Virus record (IMG/VR): IMGVR_UViG_2850949226_000003
Coordinates: 14,282-78,281 of that record
Length of the DNA: 64,000 nucleotides
Source: a virus
Lineage: Duplodnaviria > Caudoviricetes
Direction: 5' to 3' (one strand)
The position numbers and the translations under genes were made by a program. Shown in pieces: positions 1-16,193 of this stretch. Each line of letters begins with the position of its first letter. Within the stretch, counting starts at the first letter, position 1. The notes under the pieces are model-generated. The model searched no databases. It saw nothing but the letters and a program-made list of their open reading frames with translations, and was not told where the DNA came from.

Positions 1-128
1 TCCATTGAATTGATAATCTCTCTCACTTCATTTTTTGTTTTTTCCGCTTTATCCGGCCAGTTATTCACCAATGCTTTATACCAAAAGTTCATTTTTGTCG
101 CAACCAAATCATACGGAATTACGCTCAC
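1..128 (-). CDS. Rap-family (RRNPP) response-regulator aspartate phosphatase, 5' part only (runs off window)
   Basis: Not in ORF track. Manual translation from GTG at 128 after RBS GGGAAGAGG gives MSVIPYDLVATKMNFWYKALVNNWPDKAEKTKNEVREIINSM, a typical Bacillus Rap N-terminus. Confidence 0.8.
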   Translation of the reverse strand, partial: MSVIPYDLVATKMNFWYKALVNNWPDKAEKTKNEVREIINSM

Positions 129-6537: not shown

Positions 6538-7387
6538 ATGAAAGGTATTGCAAAACTGAATAATTTGTTCTCTAGGATTAAGTTTCTTCCGAAGACGGGA
6601 AATCGACTGAAGCAAACTTTTATTGAAGGGGGCAGAGTGTTGCAACCGACCAAAGCCACGACACTCTACCACCCGGCGCTTCCCAAGAGTGAGAAGCATA
6701 CCAATTATATCATGTTTTCTCTCTTTTTTGCAATTCAGCTTTTACTATCGCCTGTCGTCCAAGCGGCTGATAAATACCAAAATTTCGCGGAATTACAGGC
6801 AAACGAAGACCCTGCAAACTATAACATCGAGAGTGTAAGTCATGATCACTCTGTTCTTATATTCGCTCCGCATGGTGGAGGTATCGAAGGGGGAACAAGT
6901 GAAATTGCACGTCACTTGAGCGCAGGTTATTCGATGTATCTGTTTGAGGGACTAAAGTCTTCTGGAAACTTCGATTTACACATCACAAGTACAAATTTCG
7001 ACGAACCCACCGCATTAAAAATGATCAGCAAACACCAATACGTCATATCTCTTCATGGTTATCGGGATAATAAAGAGCATGTCATTGTTGGTGGCTCTGA
7101 CACCCTGAATGCGGCTCGCTTAACGGAGATTTTAAATGATGCAGGAATTTCAGCAGAACATAGAACAAGCGGCTCTCTAGCTGGAGTTGATCCGGGGGAA
7201 CATTGCGAATAAGTGCATCACAGGTAAAAGCATCCAGATCGAGATGAGCACACCGTTACGGAAATCCATGTTCGAAACGTTCACATTATCAGGAAGGTCT
7301 GGTTCTCAAAACGAAAGATTTTATTTGTTCACTAATTTATTAACGACTTTCATCAAGGACACTTATGAAAGCGGGGTAAATGAGTAA
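6538..7387 (+). pseudogene. Poly-gamma-glutamate hydrolase (PghP/YndL-like, DUF867) split by a frameshift near 7194-7198
   Basis: APHGGGIEGGTSE, LHITSTNFDEP, ISLHGY in 6538..7212; the C-terminus NIANK...SIQIEMSTPLRKSMF is in another frame (7187..7387). Removing one G from CCGGGGG restores one ORF. Confidence 0.85.
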
Positions 7388-9141
7388 TGTTTACATTTAT
7401 CCCGGCAGAATGGAATATCTTTACGGACAAAACGAATGCAAAAGAAACAACTGATGGTTTGAATGCTGTAATACACGCCGCACAAAAAGCAGGACACACT
7501 GAAATTTTTATTCCTAGAGGGAATTATTTAATTGACGGTGTAAATGAAACAGGGAAAACGCCAGAGGAAGGTGCAGGGATTCGCCCGCCTTCTAATATCA
7601 AAATCCTTATGCACCCCGAAACGGTTCTCAATGTAAAACCGAACGGTTCGTATGGGTATTCTTGTTTCCATCTGGAAACCGTTGAAAATGTCACGATATC
7701 AGGCGGGAAGATCAGAGGGGACCGGTACGAACATGATTTCACAGGGCATGGGGACCTCAAAGAAAAAGATACTCACGAATGGGGATTCGGAATTAATATC
7801 CAAGGTTCAAAAAATATCATCATCGAAAATGTAGACATCACAGGTTTAACAGGAGATTGCATTTTCATATGTGCTAAAGGTCTGCTTAATGTCCCTTGGA
7901 CAGATTACACGCCATCCCAAAACATAACCATCCGAAATTGTATTCTTGATGGATCACGCCGGAATAACATTTCTGTAACAGCCGGCGAAGGAGTTTTGAT
8001 TCAAAGAAATGTTATCACAAACGCAGGAATTAATGATGGATGTAAACCAGGATTCGGTATTGATATAGAGGGGTATGGAGAAGGGGATATTGATTTCGAA
8101 GAACCGAAGAACATCATCGTTTCCAAAAACACTTTTATCGGCAATGTTAATCAGTCAGCCTGTAATTATAACGGGTATGGAGTGGTGTTCGAGGGGAACT
8201 ATTCTGACAATTCCATTTCATACGGGTATGGCACCGACACAGTTCTGTTTGATAACGTATTTAGTCGTGAGGACAAAAAGCAAGTTGCCATAACTGCTTT
8301 AGGGGTTTCTAACGGTAAGAAAGCCAATAATGTGTCTATCAAAGGGAATGTAGTCAAAGGCTTTAGTAGTGGTATAGATGCGCGTGGAAAAGGTATTGTC
8401 GTAACGGGGAATGCACTTTCAGAATTAGGTGGCGTTCCGATATCGACGTATAAAGCTGAAAATATCCTTATAACAAATAATATCGTTCACGAATGCAAGG
8501 GAACTCTGTGCAAGACCTTTCAATCAGGCGATGTTTTCATTCAAGGAAATAAGTTCAGCGATTCTGATGTAACTGCTTTCGAAATTGTGGATTCCGTTAA
8601 CGTTAAATTGTTAATGAATGACATAAGGAAATCAAAACAAGGTTTTAGGATCATGAGTTCAAGTGCAAAAATAATGGATAACATCATCGACTTATCAGAA
8701 CATGAATCTCCGTCATACGGAATTTACTTTGACAAGTTCAGTGATGTAATTATGAAGCGGAATCATTTTGAAGGTCTGCGAAACATGGCTATCTACGGAG
8801 ACAGCAAAGAAGGTCGGAAAGTCGAATTGAAACAAAACGTTATCAAAGATTTCCGGGCCATTATCCCGGTCTATATTGTCGGAGGAAAAGATCATAAAAT
8901 CACAGACAATGACATCACTTTTAATCGTTCTTCGGACGGAGGATACGGCATCTATCTCAAAGATACAGATAACGTTATGATAGCTGGAAATTCTGTTCTG
9001 AATAATTCTCCGTTCAAAATTGCAAGCCACATTAAGACGAACGAGTCGGTTAATTCTAAAGTGATCAATAACACTTTGTGCAAAAGCGGTAAATTACTTT
9101 TGAATGAAACCGATTCAGAGTACGGAAATATATTGATCTAA
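7387..9141 (+). CDS. Right-handed parallel beta-helix protein (pectate-lyase/depolymerase-like)
   Basis: TTDGLNAVIHAA...IFIPRGNYLI start; repeated (N/S)ITIxNxxI units; GDCI and RRNNIS motifs. Confidence 0.8.
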   Translation: MFTFIPAEWNIFTDKTNAKETTDGLNAVIHAAQKAGHTEIFIPRGNYLIDGVNETGKTPEEGAGIRPPSNIKILMHPETVLNVKPNGSYGYSCFHLETVENVTISGGKIRGDRYEHDFTGHGDLKEKDTHEWGFGINIQGSKNIIIENVDITGLTGDCIFICAKGLLNVPWTDYTPSQNITIRNCILDGSRRNNISVTAGEGVLIQRNVITNAGINDGCKPGFGIDIEGYGEGDIDFEEPKNIIVSKNTFIGNVNQSACNYNGYGVVFEGNYSDNSISYGYGTDTVLFDNVFSREDKKQVAITALGVSNGKKANNVSIKGNVVKGFSSGIDARGKGIVVTGNALSELGGVPISTYKAENILITNNIVHECKGTLCKTFQSGDVFIQGNKFSDSDVTAFEIVDSVNVKLLMNDIRKSKQGFRIMSSSAKIMDNIIDLSEHESPSYGIYFDKFSDVIMKRNHFEGLRNMAIYGDSKEGRKVELKQNVIKDFRAIIPVYIVGGKDHKITDNDITFNRSSDGGYGIYLKDTDNVMIAGNSVLNNSPFKIASHIKTNESVNSKVINNTLCKSGKLLLNETDSEYGNILI

Positions 9142-9183
9142 GAATAAAGCTGACGAATATTATGATAAGAGGGGGATTGCGAC

Positions 9184-9347
9184 ATGTTCTTGATATTGAT
9201 TTTAACAGGCTTATTTGTTGTTGACGCAATAGGGATTGGACTTCGGTTGCATCTTACGCATTTTCGTATATCCCCCTTTTAGTTGTGATCACTGCGGTTT
9301 CGATATTTATGTCTTTCTACACAATAATCAAATGGATGGACAAATAG
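9184..9347 (+). pseudogene. Small two-TM protein apparently broken by a 1-nt indel near 9232-9234
   Basis: MFLILILTGLFVVDAIG continues in another frame as DWTSVASYAFSYIPLLVVITAVSIFMSFYTIIKWMDK*. One extra G joins them. Confidence 0.4.
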
Positions 9348-9359
9348 GGGTGTGTCAGT

Positions 9360-9512
9360 ATGGCTGATGAAAAAGTTTGCTCTGTGTGCGGAAGAGAAGT
9401 TTTCCCTGACTATAATTTCTTTGATCGAGATGAAGTCTGCGATAGATGCTGGAAAGAATGGGAGCAGGAAAAGAGAGAACAGGAGCATGAATATTGGAGA
9501 TCGAGGTTATGA
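9360..9512 (+). CDS. Small Zn-finger protein (50 aa)
   Basis: Manual: MADEKVCSVCGREVFPDYNFFDRDEVCDRCWKEWEQEKREQEHEYWRSRL; RBS AGGGG. Confidence 0.7.
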   Translation: MADEKVCSVCGREVFPDYNFFDRDEVCDRCWKEWEQEKREQEHEYWRSRL

Positions 9513-9557
9513 AACAGCCGATTATTTGCTTGGCTTAGGCGTTTAGAAGAATGGAGG

Positions 9558-9791
9558 ATGAAGATGAAAGAAGAATACGAACATCCAACACACAGGTTCA
9601 ACAGTAACGGAGAATTGGTCCCTATTCAACCGCCTTTAAGCAGGAAACAGCGCAGGATGATCAAGCAAGTTCAAAAACGCAGAATCAAAAAATTAAAGAA
9701 AGCAAGACTTCAATTAGAGCGGGAGAAGATTAAGTATGACCAAACGGAGAAAGCCAAAACTAAAAGAAAAAATACGGGTAGTGACAGATGA
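9558..9791 (+). CDS. Basic phage hypothetical protein
   Basis: RBS GGAGG; Lys/Arg-rich. Confidence 0.5.
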   Translation: MKMKEEYEHPTHRFNSNGELVPIQPPLSRKQRRMIKQVQKRRIKKLKKARLQLEREKIKYDQTEKAKTKRKNTGSDR

Positions 9792-9916
9792 TTTCGACCA
9801 TCCATTTAAATCAAATACATTGGTCGAGGTAACAGAAATACTGATTATGGTGTTGTTTGGGCGAAGGATAAGTCGGGTATCTTAGGTTGTTTAATTCCTG
9901 ATGATTATGTTTTTGA

Positions 9917-9945
9917 GGACTCTATAGAAAAATAGAGTCCTTTTT
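9917..9945 (+). terminator. Intrinsic terminator
   Basis: GGACTCTAT...ATAGAGTCC then T-run. Confidence 0.75.
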
Positions 9946-10016
9946 ATAACCAATTGGTTGAATTATTATGGTTATAGTGATAATATTCAGATATAAAAAT
10001 AAAGGGAGGAAACTGG

Positions 10017-10763
10017 ATGTTCTTTTTGCATGATATTTGGATTAACTGGATCGAGGGAGCGATTAAAGGGTATCAAGTACCAGAATTCTTCGAATGGCAC
10101 GCTAGTGATGATGTTACTCTTATGGATGTTATACCATTAATAAAAGTTGAGGAAGGGTTCTTCGATTACGTTGAAGATGGGATTAACGAATTGCCGTCTG
10201 ATCTTATGCAATTAGTGAAAAACAGTGCTTGTATGTACAAAAAGAATGAGAAGGTCAATATGAGCGCGTTCGTCATAACAGATGGCAGGAGGATTTTAGC
10301 TGTCGATCCTGTAGATTCGAATTCTCCTTCCAAGAAGAGCAGACTAACTCTTCGTCATGAGCGGAAGATTTTGGAGATGGTCGAAGGAGTAGAGCCTTTG
10401 AAGTTTGAGTACACCCCACTTCCTGAAGGTGATTTTGATTTCTTCAATGCCCCCGAACAGTTTATGTATGGTTTGACGAGGACCGAAAGAGAAGTGAAAT
10501 CTTTGATCTTTGAAGGATTAATTTTAATGTATCCTGATGAGGATATCGCTAAATTAAGATACCTGTATCATGAGTGGGATTATAACAGTATAGATTCGAT
10601 TAATGATTTAGAATTCAAAGACTTAATGGTTAGGTTATTATCGGAGGTTTCAATTGGTTTTCACCAAGGTCATAAAGACCTTGCTAAAGCGATTGCTAAT
10701 ACAGATGATATAATAAATTCAAAGTACAAATATATCATTGAAAGGAAGAACATGATTGGCTAG
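10017..10763 (+). CDS. yjbA: YjbA/MdfA (DUF3603) homologue
   Basis: MFFLHDIWINWIEG, FVITDGRRILAVD, KKSRL, GLTRTERE and YHEW match B. subtilis YjbA as I recall it (MLFLHDVWVNWFEG, FVVTDGIGILAVD, RKSRL, GLTRKERQ, YTEW) over the full length. Confidence 0.8.
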   Translation: MFFLHDIWINWIEGAIKGYQVPEFFEWHASDDVTLMDVIPLIKVEEGFFDYVEDGINELPSDLMQLVKNSACMYKKNEKVNMSAFVITDGRRILAVDPVDSNSPSKKSRLTLRHERKILEMVEGVEPLKFEYTPLPEGDFDFFNAPEQFMYGLTRTEREVKSLIFEGLILMYPDEDIAKLRYLYHEWDYNSIDSINDLEFKDLMVRLLSEVSIGFHQGHKDLAKAIANTDDIINSKYKYIIERKNMIG

Positions 10764-11178
10764 GAAAAGTTGGGATCAATATTTTATGGAGCAAGCAGAA
10801 CTTGTCTCTACCCGCGCGACTTGCGACAGGTTGAAGGTTGGTGCTGTTCTAGTTAAAGATAACAGGATAATTGCTACGGGTTATAACGGTTCTATTTCTG
10901 GTACTGCTCACTGCGATGACGTAGGCCATCTTATGTACGAGAATGGTTGTAAAAGGACAATACATGCGGAGTTTAATGCTATTTTACAATGTGCGAAATA
11001 TGGTGTTGCCGTAGATGGCGCCACGGCTTATGTAACTCATTATCCATGCCCGTCTTGTATGCAAGCTTTAAATCAGGCTGGCATCAAGAGAGTGGTTTAT
11101 AGGTATTTCTATAAGCATAGATACGAAAACGATTTTGATCAAGGGATGGAAGTGGTTCAATTTGAAGGGGATAATTAG
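10756..11178 (+). CDS. dCMP deaminase (ComEB-like)
   Basis: RATCDRLKVGAVLV, TGYNG, HAEFNAI and PCPSC zinc motifs. Confidence 0.9.
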   Translation: MARKSWDQYFMEQAELVSTRATCDRLKVGAVLVKDNRIIATGYNGSISGTAHCDDVGHLMYENGCKRTIHAEFNAILQCAKYGVAVDGATAYVTHYPCPSCMQALNQAGIKRVVYRYFYKHRYENDFDQGMEVVQFEGDN

Positions 11179-11431
11179 AAGAGTCGATGTTTTAGGTAGG
11201 ATTGTATTACCGAAGGCTTTTAGAGAAGCTTGTGGTATTAATTCAGGAGACGAAGTTGAAATCGTTATGAAGGGGAACGGTATTTATCTTCAAAAACACA
11301 ACAGATACGCTAGGTGTGCTATGACGGGGGAAGTTACAGAAGATATCAAGGTATACGGGAACGGAATTTTTTTGAGTCGAAAAGGGCGTGAACAATTATT
11401 GGAGGATTTAAAAAGAGAAGGGGATTCTTGA
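11162..11431 (+). CDS. AbrB/Abh-family transition-state regulator
   Basis: KGIIRRVDVLGRIVLPK...CAMTGEV...LSRKG. Start placed at TTG 11162. Confidence 0.85.
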   Translation: MKGIIRRVDVLGRIVLPKAFREACGINSGDEVEIVMKGNGIYLQKHNRYARCAMTGEVTEDIKVYGNGIFLSRKGREQLLEDLKREGDS

Positions 11432-11456
11432 GAAGCAACCTTTAAAACTAGGTACT
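11429..11456 (+). promoter_or_regulatory. Putative phage-sigma promoter (TGAGA-N19-TACT)
   Basis: Same motif and spacing as copies at 16256, 18395, 21086 and 43646. Confidence 0.4.
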
Positions 11457-11554
11457 GTTATAACCGTATCGATTTGATTTTAACATTATATTAGTTATAA
11501 AATTAAGGTATAAAGATTTGATTTGAACTTCGTGGAAGAAATGGAGGAAACAGA

Positions 11555-11788
11555 ATGAAAGTCAGGGTTAAGGAGTTAAACGAAGATAAAGCGATCTTGG
11601 AAGTTCATACTACCAGTGGAATTAAGGAATTGGTTGTTTCAAGAACGCAATTTGGGCATTCTTATGACGACTTTTCTTCTTGGGATATTTCTGATCAGAA
11701 TTATTACGACTTAGAAGATTTGGTTGATAATGTGATAGCTCGTATGAGTGGAACCGCATCGTCGTTGGAAGTCGAATGGGAGGTTTAA
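11555..11788 (+). CDS. Phage hypothetical protein
   Basis: RBS GGAGG. Confidence 0.6.
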   Translation: MKVRVKELNEDKAILEVHTTSGIKELVVSRTQFGHSYDDFSSWDISDQNYYDLEDLVDNVIARMSGTASSLEVEWEV

Positions 11789-11790
11789 GA

Positions 11791-11988
11791 ATGAAAATTA
11801 TTTCGAGAAAAGAAATGAATGCCGCTGATTTTGCTTCCGAATTGTTTGGGGTTATTCCTATAGGTCAAGCTAAAGAAATTTATCGGAATATTGAACATTA
11901 TACAGAGGCTAAGAAAAACATCATTATTGACCTCTTGAGGGCAAACCCAAGAAAATACATTGCGGCTTTATTAAAATATGACGACTAA
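11791..11988 (+). CDS. Phage hypothetical protein
   Basis: ATG 11791 after GGGAGG; same frame as track ORF 11776..11988. Confidence 0.55.
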   Translation: MKIISRKEMNAADFASELFGVIPIGQAKEIYRNIEHYTEAKKNIIIDLLRANPRKYIAALLKYDD

Positions 11989-12196
11989 AACATTCGATGA
12001 CTTATATGCCGGGGTATATCTGGATGTGGTTCATGACAAGGATTATATCTATTCCTCCGGCTTTGTTGGTTTTTGTAAGGTTTGCAATCGGTTAACCCGT
12101 TGGACATCGATCCTATATGGGTGCTACGCATGTAGTGAGGAATGTATAAGGCATCTCGATAGGAGTGGGTATTTTGATTTCATGGAAAGTGATTAG
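11978..12196 (+). CDS. Small Cys-rich (Zn-finger-like) protein
   Basis: CKVC...CSEEC motif; overlaps neighbours. Confidence 0.55.
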   Translation: MTTKTFDDLYAGVYLDVVHDKDYIYSSGFVGFCKVCNRLTRWTSILYGCYACSEECIRHLDRSGYFDFMESD

Positions 12197-12575
12197 GGAT
12201 GATGCTGTTGTATTCGAGGGACCTATTGAACTTGCAGTATTGCACTTGAAACAATTTGGAGAGAAATTCAAACTAAAAGTCTTTATAAAAGAAATGGAGA
12301 TATATGTTGTTGATTCGAAAGTCGAAGTAAGCAGATCAGAGCTTATAAAACAAGGTATGAAGAGAAAACAAATAGAAAAATTCAGGAAGTACAAGGGTTT
12401 CGTTAACGACCCCGGTTATAAATTCTGTACCCATTGCAAATTGAGCAAACCCTTAGATGCTTTTGGTTTCAGGTCTAATAGCGAAGACGGCAGAGCAAGG
12501 CAATGCCGCGAGTGCGTGAATAAAAAGGCAAAGAAGTATAGGAATCGCAGAACGAGGAAGGAAGAAGAAAAGTGA
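12189..12575 (+). CDS. Protein with C-terminal CxxC...CxxC Zn finger
   Basis: KFCTHCKLSKPLDAF...DGRARQCREC, a treble-clef-like motif common in phage DNA-binding/endonuclease proteins. Start uncertain. Confidence 0.6.
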   Translation: MIRDDAVVFEGPIELAVLHLKQFGEKFKLKVFIKEMEIYVVDSKVEVSRSELIKQGMKRKQIEKFRKYKGFVNDPGYKFCTHCKLSKPLDAFGFRSNSEDGRARQCRECVNKKAKKYRNRRTRKEEEK

Positions 12576-12982: not shown

Positions 12983-13765
12983 GTGGGTGATAAGGTAATC
13001 AGAGCTTCGGACAATGAAGAAGTAAAATATGACATTATCGATTTTAAGAAACTCACAACGGTCATGAAAAGGTTTTTGGGTAGCAAAAAATCTGATCCGG
13101 AAGTAACGAAGTGGTATAAGGTAGAAGATGGTCTTCATTTTATGGCGACAACATTAGGGTCTGCGGTTTACATTCTTTTCAAAAACAAATATGCCGGTAC
13201 TTTTAATAAAGCGACTGGAAAAGACTTCTTTGTGAAACCTTTATCTAACGGAAAACAAGAGGAAGTTGAAGCCATCCCTGAATTAGAAATTGTTACTGAA
13301 GGAAAGAAAAAAATTGAAAGACCTACAGGAAGGACACTTGAATATCCTGATGTAGTTGGTCTGTTTAATAGTTTTAATTTTAATGATTTTCATAAAGTTG
13401 AAATAGATGTAGATGACACTGATGATTTTATTTCGGTTCATGAAGCGATGTCGAAAGCATCGAAGGTAGGCGGACCGCATAATACAGCCAAGATGAAAAT
13501 TGAGAGTAATGAGCTATTATTAAAACTTCATGATTCTCCGATTGATTTTGAATTCAAATACAAAATAAAAAGTGATAATCGATTTTGTTTTGGGGATTAT
13601 CATTATGATTTTGATTTAATGACAGCAATATTCAAATCGTTAAAGGACCTAAAACCTTACAAAATCGAAATGTATGTAAGAGATATTGACCATCCCATCC
13701 TATTTGTCGGTGAATCAACTGACTATAACTTTAACTTTGCAATTCAAAGGATATTAGTTAGATAG
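12983..13765 (+). CDS. Beta-sliding-clamp-like protein (two domains only)
   Basis: GTG after AAGGAGG. LHFMAT, EYPDV, KMKIESNELLL and IEMYVRDIDHPILF...FNFAIQRI parallel DnaN domains II-III. Confidence 0.5.
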   Translation: MGDKVIRASDNEEVKYDIIDFKKLTTVMKRFLGSKKSDPEVTKWYKVEDGLHFMATTLGSAVYILFKNKYAGTFNKATGKDFFVKPLSNGKQEEVEAIPELEIVTEGKKKIERPTGRTLEYPDVVGLFNSFNFNDFHKVEIDVDDTDDFISVHEAMSKASKVGGPHNTAKMKIESNELLLKLHDSPIDFEFKYKIKSDNRFCFGDYHYDFDLMTAIFKSLKDLKPYKIEMYVRDIDHPILFVGESTDYNFNFAIQRILVR

Positions 13766-13771
13766 GAGAGT

Positions 13772-14263
13772 ATGATGAAAATGACACCGGGTGTAGGCGA
13801 TTATGTCGAAGTGTTGGGGTGTTCTTATGGCGGCAGGGACATTTTTATCGGAAAGACTGGTGAAATTGTGGAGATCAACAAAGACCGTTCGCCAGCTATA
13901 TATAAAGTGAGAGTTAGATTTGAATGGATTAATCAAGTGTGGTGGTTTAAGTCATCCGAATTGAGGGTTCTTAAAAAAGGTTTGGAAACAATCCCAACTA
14001 AGTTGAATAGTCGTTATGTGGCAAAAGCTTTTTGGATTGGCCACAAGAAAATGATGGAAGAGAAAGTGAAACAATTAGAGGAAGATTGCAAAAAGGTCGG
14101 AAGAGAAATGTTGCTTGCTCTTTGTGATGGCAGTTTCAATATAGAGGACGCTATTTATTGGCACGAACAATGCAAAGAATTATTTGAGATGTACACCGGA
14201 TACAAGGAGAAGTTAGAAAAAGCTAAAGGGGTAGTTGGTGCCGAAGATGAAAAACTCAACTAA
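13772..14263 (+). CDS. Phage protein with N-terminal SH3/KOW-like beta domain
   Basis: GVGDYVEV...IGKTGEIVEI...YKVRV; RBS AGGAG. Confidence 0.6.
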   Translation: MMKMTPGVGDYVEVLGCSYGGRDIFIGKTGEIVEINKDRSPAIYKVRVRFEWINQVWWFKSSELRVLKKGLETIPTKLNSRYVAKAFWIGHKKMMEEKVKQLEEDCKKVGREMLLALCDGSFNIEDAIYWHEQCKELFEMYTGYKEKLEKAKGVVGAEDEKLN

Positions 14264-14939
14264 GATGATGGAGCTATTCAAGAGTAAACCGATCTTTGAA
14301 GAGCTTGCGGAATTGAGGTTAAAAATCGCAACGACAGATGATTTAAAAATAAAGGGCGAATTGGAATTGTATGAAGATCGTATCCGTGAGTTCTCCGTTT
14401 CTTTATTGAAAAGGGTTAAAGCGAGAGAGAACGGGGCATTTGAAGAATTAATGAGTCTCAAGGATATGAAGAATTTTCTTCATTTTTACGCTTACCATAT
14501 CAGGGATTACCATAAATTTAGGTACAGCAAACAAAACGTTCTCCACGAAATCAGATTTCAAATATTTTACCACGTAGTAAACAATTATCGCATTTATAAT
14601 GAACCTCACGAAATCAGCCTATTAATCACAAGTATGAGGAACTGGATCAGACAGAAGGTTAGTGCCGCATTAAAAAACACATACAATCCGAAGGACGATG
14701 AGAAATTAGATCAAGTTTTTTTAGTAGGGGATGCGACGGATGATACAGAGGTTCTTGTGCGGGATCTAATTGACAGATACCTCGATAGAGAGGAAAAAAT
14801 TGTTTTTGAGTTGAAATTCTTTGAAGAGAGAGGCTTCGTGGAAATCGGAAAATTCATAGGAGCTTCGAAAGATACCGCCCAAAGAAGATACAAAAAAGCT
14901 TTAAATAAATTGAGTAAAATATTGTCGAAAGAGTTATAA
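14247..14939 (+). CDS. Sigma-70-family region 4 protein (phage sigma-like factor)
   Basis: LDREEKIVFELKFFEERGFVEIGKFIGASKDTAQRRYKKALNKL HTH; RVKARENGAFEELM resembles the region 2 lead-in. Confidence 0.7.
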   Translation: MKNSTKMMELFKSKPIFEELAELRLKIATTDDLKIKGELELYEDRIREFSVSLLKRVKARENGAFEELMSLKDMKNFLHFYAYHIRDYHKFRYSKQNVLHEIRFQIFYHVVNNYRIYNEPHEISLLITSMRNWIRQKVSAALKNTYNPKDDEKLDQVFLVGDATDDTEVLVRDLIDRYLDREEKIVFELKFFEERGFVEIGKFIGASKDTAQRRYKKALNKLSKILSKEL

Positions 14940-15548: not shown

Positions 15549-16193
15549 ATGTCTGAAAAGCATAACAATCTTCAGGGCGAAGTATGGACCGATGATGACG
15601 ATATTCAATTAGCTGAAACGGTGTTGAGGAGGGTTAGACAAGGAGATTCCGTAATTGATGCTTGCCGCGAGTTTGAAGAAGCCACAAAAGGCAGACGAAC
15701 ATCATCAGCTTCTAAATTCAGATGGCACACAAAATTAAAAGAACGATATGCTGGCGCTTACGAATTAGCCAGAAGGGAAGGGAAGAAAACAAGAGATTAT
15801 AAACGCCGAAAAGTAAACCAAGGCGAACGCTATCAAGATTTGTTGGAAAACGTTTTGGACAAGGATAGTGACAGAGAGATCACTATTGATGATATTTTGA
15901 TTTTAGTCAAAAAATACAAAGAACAAAGTGAAGACAAAGTTAGTGAATATGAACGTTATGAAAAAGAAACCGATAAACTCCGCAGAGAAATCGAAAAGCT
16001 CAAAAAAGAGTTGAAAGATGAACGTTTAGAAAAGAAACAAATGAAAGAAGCTTTAATTGAGGTTGATCGCAACTACAAAAAACTATTGGATGCTCTCAAA
16101 GTTCTGAAGGAAGCCGGAATTCAAATCAATGTTCCCGAACCTGAATCATTCGAATATATAGTCAATAAAGATGGTACTGTAGAAAAAATGTAA
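15549..16193 (+). CDS. RsfA/YlbO(GerR)-family transcriptional regulator
   Basis: WTDDDDIQLAETVLRRVRQG...RTSSASKFRW Myb-like N-terminus plus coiled coil. Confidence 0.85.
   Translation: MSEKHNNLQGEVWTDDDDIQLAETVLRRVRQGDSVIDACREFEEATKGRRTSSASKFRWHTKLKERYAGAYELARREGKKTRDYKRRKVNQGERYQDLLENVLDKDSDREITIDDILILVKKYKEQSEDKVSEYERYEKETDKLRREIEKLKKELKDERLEKKQMKEALIEVDRNYKKLLDALKVLKEAGIQINVPEPESFEYIVNKDGTVEKM

Follow-up and report, generated by a model that had tools for sequence, protein, structure and literature searches.

A divergent MdfA-family protein encoded by a temperate phage of the Bacillus licheniformis group is a candidate phage adaptor of ClpC

This study focused on a window of 64,000 nucleotides of phage DNA, bases 14282–78281 of the IMG/VR provirus record IMGVR_UViG_2850949226_000003 (78,281 bp, 97% complete according to CheckV), and in particular on a gene for a protein of 248 amino acids (aa) that belongs to the MdfA/YjbA (DUF3603) family, the Bacillus subtilis member of which has been crystallised with the N domain of the protease component ClpC. 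The gene is preceded by genes for a poly-gamma-glutamate hydrolase (PghP) and a beta-helix protein, and is followed by genes for a deoxycytidine monophosphate (dCMP) deaminase, an AbrB-like regulator, a phage sigma factor and a GerR/RsfA-like protein (Table 1). The window also encodes a nucleoside triphosphate pyrophosphohydrolase, an exonuclease, a terminase and a portal protein.

Table 1. Features of the MdfA-like locus and its surroundings. Positions are those of the window unless stated otherwise.
Feature	Position	Strand	Details
Large serine recombinase	left end of record, 1–1593 of locus L002		
Tyrosine integrase	left end of record, 2074–2958 of locus L002		
Rap-type response-regulator aspartate phosphatase	record 13288–14409, running into window 1–128	-	RapH_N 5.8e-20 plus TPR
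PghP	6538–7212	+	PF05908 5e-49, model positions 1–145 of 191
Beta-helix protein	7387–9141	+	PF13229 4.6e-28
Terminator-like hairpin	9915–9947	+	11-bp stem 9915–9925/9932–9942, then UUUUUAU
Shine-Dalgarno sequence of MdfA-like gene	10001–10009	+	AAAGGGAGG, 7 nt before ATG; strong, read from the sequence
MdfA/YjbA-family (DUF3603) protein	10017–10763	+	248 aa, ATG start, TAG stop
Ribosome-binding site of deaminase gene	10740–10748	+	GAAAGGAAG, inside the MdfA-like gene
dCMP deaminase (ComEB-like)	10756–11178	+	TTG start; PF00383 2.1e-30, PHROG 174 1.1e-53
AbrB-like transition-state regulator	11135–11431	+	PF18277 3.3e-11, PF04014 6.1e-11, TIGR01439 3.2e-10
Phage sigma factor	14235–14939	+	PHROG 1740, 1.1e-18
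GerR/RsfA-like protein	15549–16193	+	214 aa; NCBIfam GerR 2.5e-20, TIGR02894 1.1e-16, PHROG 16084

The protein is a full-length but divergent member of the DUF3603/MdfA family, as the first-pass annotation of this DNA had described it. It matches the Pfam model PF12227 (DUF3603) over residues 35–230 with an E value of 1e-39 and a score of 136.6 bits, well above the gathering cut-off of 23.7 bits, with an identical outcome for the whole provirus record, so that the search with this model that had been suggested beforehand was positive; host orthologues, by comparison, reach about 365–381 bits on the same model. PHROG 7257, for which no function is assigned, is matched with an E value of 2.6e-43, and no model was matched in an NCBIfam scan. 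When all PDB chains were searched with phmmer there was one real match, chain A of 8B3S (E 1e-43, query residues 1–220), which is the B. subtilis YjbA/MdfA protein in complex with the ClpC N domain. Identity is 29–35% to host copies in the alignment and 33% to 8B3S according to Foldseek.

A structural model of the phage protein, produced by AlphaFold2 from a 40-sequence alignment, has a mean predicted local distance difference test score of 92.6 and a predicted template modelling (TM) score of 0.86. It consists of a beta-rich N-terminal domain (residues ~1–121), a linker (~122–150) with lower confidence around residues 131–150, and a C-terminal helical bundle (155–242), that is, the two-domain fold of 8B3S with its beta-barrel/hairpin domain, linker and helical bundle. 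In a Foldseek search of the PDB, 8b3s_A was the sole match at E<=0.001 (E 1.9e-24, TMq 0.83, TMt 0.86, root mean square deviation 2.7 Å over 241 columns), the next one having an E value of 0.27, and both domains are therefore placed as in the ClpC-bound crystal. Four structural matches were also found in BFVD, all of them uncharacterised.

The co-crystal structure of the host proteins, in the sections of Massoni 2025 (PMC11960690) that are drawn upon here, assigns three acidic contacts to MdfA on ClpC (E161–K12, E116–K85 and E53–H79), and charge reversals are reported to weaken interaction and function, with paired swaps restoring them. All three glutamates are kept in the phage protein, MdfA E53/E116/E161 aligning to its E53/E115/E157 both in the phmmer alignment and in a MAFFT L-INS-i alignment of 165 rows. 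Each of the three sites is occupied by glutamate in 28 of 28 host rows, the E53 and E161 sites are likewise glutamate in all seven Herelleviridae copies examined, and the E161 equivalent is glutamate in 121 of the 125 other representatives. The most conserved motifs across the family, PxxKSRxxxRxE (P104..KSR..R..E115) and GLTRxER (G152-LTR-x-E157-R), contain one contact glutamate each, and 38 columns are invariant among six diverse relatives. On the side of the partner, ClpC residues Q11, K12, H79 and K85 were found in five of five Bacillaceae genomes checked. Since membership of the family is solid and the three contact glutamates are conserved, a ClpC-binding role for the phage protein is well motivated by its sequence. 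The earlier suggestion of a ClpC adaptor, which might redirect ClpCP or else block the native adaptor, is partly supported by both of these points.

DUF3603 is a small family: when 1.84 billion cluster representatives were searched exhaustively with phmmer, just 198 matched at E<=1e-3, of which 96 reached 1e-10 or better and 22 reached 1e-30 or better. Among 401 Bacillales genomes it is found in 372, and as exactly one copy in 371 of those; the sole second copy is a 162-aa piece in genome G367 (contig 20). The N-terminus of the host copies is almost invariant. Two trees were calculated, one with FastTree from 165 rows (the query, seven phage copies, 28 host copies and 129 representatives that are 195 aa or longer) and one with IQ-TREE (LG+G4) from 50 rows picked by hand from the same set. 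The host chromosomal copies form one short-branched clade in both (28 rows, support 95, with FastTree; 13 rows, support 98, with IQ-TREE) and the Herelleviridae copies form another (support 100, IQ-TREE), and the query lies outside each of them. It is instead joined by representative P0001 (100), at a looser level by P0005 and P0006 (81), and next by P0007, P0008, P0010 and P0016 (89). A host-versus-phage tree had also been suggested beforehand, and the two trees agree in placing the query in neither clade. The root and the deep branching order are unsettled in both, and no direction of transfer between hosts and phages is claimed for that reason.

Gene order leads to the same result. The host neighbourhood, fabF-yjaZ-mdfA-trpS-spx-mecA, is present at a host locus, L098 (fabH-fabF-DUF2268(yjaZ)-mdfA-trpS ... 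spx-mecA-coiA), but it is absent around the window gene, the neighbours of which are PghP, the beta-helix protein, dCMP deaminase and the AbrB-like regulator. The phage protein is not a host orthologue. Compared with B. subtilis MdfA it shares the family, the length, the two-domain fold (TM 0.83), the three contact glutamates and both motifs (KSR..R.E and GLTR.ER), and it differs in its low identity (~33%), its position outside the host clade, its residence in a prophage and its place at the head of an operon with dCMP deaminase. Locus L098 itself, obtained with the alignment of the query clade, was considered as a third phage context and rejected, its neighbours being those of the ordinary host mdfA locus; the unlabelled representatives are thus not all viral. 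Ten further representative clusters that were labelled consist almost entirely of metagenome contigs. A search for close relatives with the single protein found nothing in the viral_contigs and genome_contigs sets, a word-based protein search gave four matches only, and a search with a 6-sequence alignment gave 3 + 3 loci.

The window derives from a temperate B. licheniformis-group phage whose MdfA-like gene is intact across lysogens, as follows from the provirus call, the recombinases and the near-identical copies on chromosomes. Seven proteins with at least 90% identity to the query, one of them identical, lie on chromosome-sized contigs of Bacillus licheniformis, B. sonorensis and 'MULTISPECIES Bacillus'; all seven are 248 aa long, differ by 0–15 mostly conservative substitutions, and retain E53, E115 and E157. 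The phage setting proposed for the gene in the first-pass annotation is well borne out by the 78,281-bp provirus with its recombinases, integrase, Rap, terminase, portal and ribonucleotide reductase (RNR) genes. Within the INPHARED phage set none is close at the DNA level, and the RNR large subunit is closest (57%) to those of Slash, Stahl, Staley and Stills, siphophages of Bacillus megaterium with ~80 kb of DNA, none of which is among the DUF3603 matches in 50,697 phage records. The Rap-type gene adjoins the lysogeny region.

The small open reading frames (ORFs) upstream of the MdfA-like gene end at 9885, and the gene is set apart from them by the terminator-like hairpin, which has a folding energy of -15.6 kcal/mol (z -4.96, with 0 of 200 shuffled sequences as stable) and is not listed by a simple terminator scan. 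At its other end the gene is coupled to the dCMP deaminase gene, as had been stated earlier: the two overlap by 8 nt, the stop codon TAG of the former (10761–10763) lying inside the latter, and the deaminase ribosome-binding site GAAAGGAAG lies within the MdfA-like gene. The deaminase shows the HAE and PCxxC motifs and also matches TIGR02571 (2.7e-51), below the cut-off of that model. The AbrB-like protein has a SpoVT/AbrB N domain plus an AbrB C domain; its gene overlaps the 3' end of the deaminase gene, and its true start is probably TTG 11162. Genes on the same strand continue from the MdfA-like gene via the sigma factor to the packaging genes. That it is the first gene of a phage operon, another part of the earlier description, is plausible in view of the hairpin; the sigma-70 scan described below found no site between the hairpin and the Shine-Dalgarno sequence.

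Homologues of the MdfA-like gene are also found in other phages. With tblastn, 55 of the 50,697 phage records contained one, all below 60% identity (22–38% in the listed rows); the name is Bacillus phage in 54 of these, the remaining record being 'Phage f2b1'. The eight loci that were opened (SIOphi, Goe8, Eldridge, phiNIT1, Shbh1, Mater, BSP38 and P59) all belong to Herelleviridae/Bastillevirinae. In all eight, genes for thymidylate synthase and a deoxynucleoside monophosphate (dNMP) kinase-like protein precede the homologue; in seven a dihydrofolate reductase (DHFR) gene is directly upstream, overlapping or abutting it; in five PghP lies within about 4 kb downstream, and in three a 'tail spike' beta-helix gene lies between. 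The order ThyA-kinase-DHFR-DUF3603 recurs in three IMG/VR loci, and in Shbh1 a gene for an AbrB-like protein is located 0.7 kb downstream of the homologue. The window PghP is 45% identical to that of Goe8, and the beta-helix protein has 34% identity over 578 aa (E 2e-95) to phiNIT1 orf587, the homologue that in phiNIT1-type phages is called 'tail spike protein' and adjoins DUF3603 and PghP. Thus an accessory set consisting of DUF3603, an enzyme of the deoxythymidine monophosphate (dTMP) pathway, PghP, a beta-helix protein and an AbrB-like protein recurs in two unrelated phage types, since the window has PghP, the beta-helix and a pyrimidine enzyme as the Bastillevirinae loci do.

The Herelleviridae/Bastillevirinae copies (SIOphi, phiNIT1, Grass, SBSphiJ, Goe8, Eldridge, Moonbeam, Mater, Shbh1, BSP38 and P59) belong to PHROG 7257, as does the window protein, and have similar companions: adjoining pyrimidine/dTMP enzymes, PghP, the beta-helix protein and, in Shbh1, the AbrB-like protein. 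They differ in being 22–33% identical to the window protein and in forming their own well-supported clade, in residing in myophages of 138–166 kb rather than a temperate phage of ~78 kb, and in having DHFR as gene partner where the present gene has dCMP deaminase. Some GenBank phage records already noted DUF3603 or UPF0736, so phage copies of MdfA as such are not new; they are an already visible yet unstudied set, of which the present one represents a new, temperate-phage lineage. A full-text literature search, covering main texts, found no paper characterising a phage MdfA/DUF3603 copy, in keeping with the earlier remark that no characterised copy was known. Neither yjbA nor mdfA is named in the main text of Schwartz 2022 or that of Schwartz 2023. 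A figure legend in Riley 2025 (PMC11960778), for the Pfam sunburst, places 'a few in viruses', and the homology searches described by Massoni et al. (PMC11960690), in the sections used here, yielded no more distant MdfA relatives.

What is known of host MdfA comes from the same two studies, in the sections just referred to. Produced in the forespore under the control of sigma F, MdfA attaches to the N domain of ClpC at a site different from those of MecA and phosphoarginine, and triggers hexamerisation and ATPase activity of ClpC; its production in vegetative cells is toxic, causing filamentation and lysis in a clpC- and clpP-dependent manner (Massoni 2025, PMC11960690). The proteins whose depletion depends on MdfA number 117, of which 90% are metabolic, and include sigma F, E and B, Hpf, FtsZ and DivIVA (Riley 2025, PMC11960778). 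MecA, McsB and YpbH also activate ClpC via its N domain but have unrelated folds and, in the literature as consulted, use a different surface of ClpC, and no search with the phage protein revealed any similarity to them. A precedent for the job proposed here is Gp53 of phage SPO1, a ClpC adaptor-like protein of ~25 kDa; it binds to ClpC and increases the ATPase activity of the latter, is a competitor of host adaptors and reduces the growth of the host, according to the parts of Mulvenna 2019 (PMC6873191) considered. Its site on ClpC is reported there to coincide in part with the MecA and McsB sites; that of MdfA is distinct. The possibility that Gp53 is a remote homologue of MdfA was rejected, as hhalign against the family alignment gave a probability of 0.2% (E 0.28) and Gp53 has no Pfam match.

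The reading preferred here, held with moderate confidence and by analogy with the host protein, is that the phage lineage has its own ClpC adaptor, which would activate ClpCP against host proteins. The phage MdfA would dock on the ClpC N domain at the surface used by forespore MdfA, with its E53, E115 and E157 facing ClpC H79, K85 and K12, and docking would shift ClpC from its resting state to active ClpCP. This would occur in vegetative cells, infected or induced, and not in the forespore, a timing that is proposed because the gene heads a lytic-side operon with dCMP deaminase and the AbrB-like regulator. The unleashed ClpCP could then degrade a set of proteins of the MdfA type (host metabolic enzymes, division proteins and alternative sigma factors), so that host growth and division would be arrested, leaving precursors and energy for the synthesis of phage DNA. 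Speaking for this reading are the family, the fold, the contact residues, the invariant ClpC surface, the operon layout, the intactness of the gene across strains and its recurrent linkage to dTMP genes. Binding, activation, substrates and timing are what we infer for the phage protein from these and from the behaviour of MdfA.

Several results weigh against this reading. The first group concerns the protein itself. At the E116 site the seven Herelleviridae copies have glutamate in three cases, aspartate in two and tyrosine or phenylalanine in the other two, and the full triad is therefore not universal among phage copies. Of the 86 positions that are invariant in hosts (the same residue in at least 27 of 28 host rows), the phage protein keeps 42 and has changed 44, and the stretch E15-E16-N17 plus C22 is among those lost; activation or the choice of substrates may therefore differ or be lost. 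Even for the host protein the word 'adaptor' is partly inferential, because MdfA did not stimulate the degradation of casein by ClpCP in vitro, and because the sections of Massoni 2025 (PMC11960690) used here give neither its direct substrates nor its substrate-binding surface as known.

The remainder concern expression. A consensus sigma-70 scan, which gave 12 sites overall where 9.1 were expected, found no site in 9886–10016; inspection by eye shows a weak candidate that lacks significance, TTGAAT-17-TAATAT with TG upstream, and reveals no convincing promoter of sigma-F or sigma-G type in that interval when it is compared with the consensus. As no promoter was identified, the timing of expression is inferred from gene order alone. 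Seven runs of RNA libraries contain the stretch of the MdfA-like gene, but contigs of this kind cannot show transcription. In three of four such runs, 8500–12500 is covered by one contig of 21–71 kb each, possibly from carried-over DNA, and the fourth (X18) has short contigs that leave 9861–10010, where the hairpin and the putative promoter region lie, uncovered, with one contig beginning at 10011, an uncovered part that constitutes no evidence.

It could be argued that the protein is a decoy or inhibitor, binding the ClpC N domain at the MdfA site and delivering nothing. By competing with host adaptors or locking ClpC it would shield phage proteins from ClpCP, or block the host MdfA pathway and the ClpC-dependent programmes of competence, stress response and sporulation that would otherwise abort infection. 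The pattern of conservation fits this to a degree, in that the contact glutamates are kept while about half of the host-invariant positions have changed; ligands at the same surface of ClpC1 can raise or lower proteolysis, as stated in the text used of Massoni 2025 (PMC11960690), Gp53 likewise competes with host adaptors in the account cited above, and the phage has other lookalikes of sporulation and transition-state regulators (Rap, AbrB-like and RsfA/GerR-like). It is nonetheless an unlikely explanation, as a simple blocker could be much smaller, whereas the entire two-domain fold is kept (TM 0.83) and conservation in the family goes beyond the three glutamates to the 38 columns invariant among six diverse relatives. 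Another explanation is an adaptor narrowly retargeted to one or a few substrates, such as a host enzyme that drains pyrimidines, a defence enzyme that depletes nucleotides, or a phage or host regulator, instead of a broad metabolic shut-off. Tight linkage to dTMP-pathway genes recurs in phages of two unrelated types (all eight Bastillevirinae loci and this siphophage) and is suggestive of this, and so are the long branches of phage copies against the short ones of hosts, as would result if the surface not facing ClpC diversifies. But a neighbourhood alone names no substrate, and the presence there of PghP and the beta-helix gene means that it may be an island of accessory genes, so we consider such narrow targeting distinctly improbable.

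The lysogenic state offers a different role, in which a second MdfA, expressed from the prophage in sporulating lysogens, would adjust proteolysis and dormancy of the forespore in a way that benefits the prophage carried in the spore. In favour of it, the phage is temperate (serine and tyrosine recombinases, IMG/VR provirus call), resides in the chromosomes of spore-formers and encodes a sigma factor in addition to Rap, AbrB-like and RsfA/GerR-like proteins, and the terminator-like hairpin before the gene leaves room for a promoter of its own. Against it stand the lack, by eye, of a sigma-F or sigma-G type promoter in 9886–10016, and a layout that is not that of a moron: the gene is without its own terminator, is coupled to the deaminase and lies in a long same-strand block that runs to terminase and portal. 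Its homologues, moreover, are mostly in Herelleviridae, generally regarded as strictly lytic in the main text of Schwartz 2022. A role of this kind is quite unlikely, if slightly less so than the narrow retargeting considered above. Finally, the gene might be a functionless passenger taken from a host genome. Decayed copies do exist elsewhere (two ORFs in SIOphi, three frame pieces in EB01 and the 162-aa piece in G367), yet the present ORF is intact and of constant length in seven of seven cluster members with mostly conservative changes, it has a strong ribosome-binding site and translational coupling, and its position outside the host clade amid deep diversity on the phage side is not that of a recent capture; we regard this as very improbable.

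A wider extension of that reading is offered as a speculation, and a rather doubtful one. It supposes that the MdfA-like proteins of phages keep the ClpC handle (the E53/E115/E157 face) while the rest of the surface diversified, and that in infected vegetative cells they feed host proteins chosen by the phage to ClpCP, the targets perhaps being enzymes that compete for dTMP, division proteins, sporulation sigma factors or defence enzymes, and that in the present phage the gene might act together with the Rap, AbrB, RsfA/GerR-like and sigma genes on the decision between sporulation and phage development. If true, a developmental switch for dormancy would have become a tool of viral takeover, one that passes from one Bacillus phage to another unrelated one. 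It was not until 2025 that MdfA was recognised as an adaptor of ClpC; the diverged phage copies with kept contact residues provide a comparative set that may separate the ClpC-binding from the substrate-selecting face. With SPO1 Gp53 as the first example, phage MdfA may also prove to be a second and independent instance in which ClpCP is commandeered by phages. Since the MdfA site on ClpC overlaps that of ClpC1-targeting antibiotics, phage proteins acting there would be of pharmacological interest. At the least, an item at the level of proteolysis is added to the growing list of sporulation-gene homologues in phages of spore-formers, and it opens a clean and inexpensive experimental route to the use that phages make of ClpCP and to the selection of substrates by MdfA.

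Several further features of the phage and its relatives deserve mention. The sigma factor gene is positioned between the MdfA-like and RsfA-like genes, and region 4 of its product resembles SigB/F/G and FliA only weakly (E 1e-4 to 1e-7). The GerR model gives the 214-aa protein a score of 73 bits, below the cut-off of 257. RsfA is a forespore regulator of the sigma-F regulon, and if the RsfA likeness is right, the phage has homologues of two forespore genes. Eldridge, one of the phages with a DUF3603 gene (gp023), also has a SigF-like gene, g169, the product of which is 61.6% identical to SigF, turns on sporulation genes and lowers spore yield by 99%, as given in the main text of Schwartz 2022. 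The two Eldridge genes may be functionally linked, because host mdfA is a target of sigma F.

Decayed DUF3603 copies were seen in SIOphi, where the gene is annotated as two ORFs (L003 3998–4792), and in the chromosome of Bacillus sp. EB01, where it is in three frame pieces (L099 6001–6508); together with the G367 piece they indicate that the gene is dispensable in some settings. In Bastillevirinae a conserved ORF of ~90–105 aa directly follows DUF3603 (e.g., Goe8 gp030, L004 4795–5112; also L005, L072–L074 and L094–L096), with 49–57% identity in three IMG/VR loci; tblastn of the present phage record found no counterpart. The window PghP matches only the first ~148 of the ~205 residues of phage PghPs (about 2–148 of those of Goe8 and phiNIT1), and an ORF of 66 aa (7187–7387) overlaps the PghP ORF in another frame; the C-terminal quarter has apparently gone out of frame or been lost.

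DNA near-identical to window positions 9000–12000 occurs in public runs of 12 studies (20 rows, nine of which are flagged as possible sources), including metagenomes of food fermentations and compost, from which it follows that the prophage is widespread. In four of four runs examined there is an extra G behind 9346 relative to the window sequence. This position falls in a cluster of small overlapping ORFs (9236–9546) that includes a mini-protein with a CxxC...CxxC arrangement (9360–9512), and either the frames may differ between strains or the record has an indel error.

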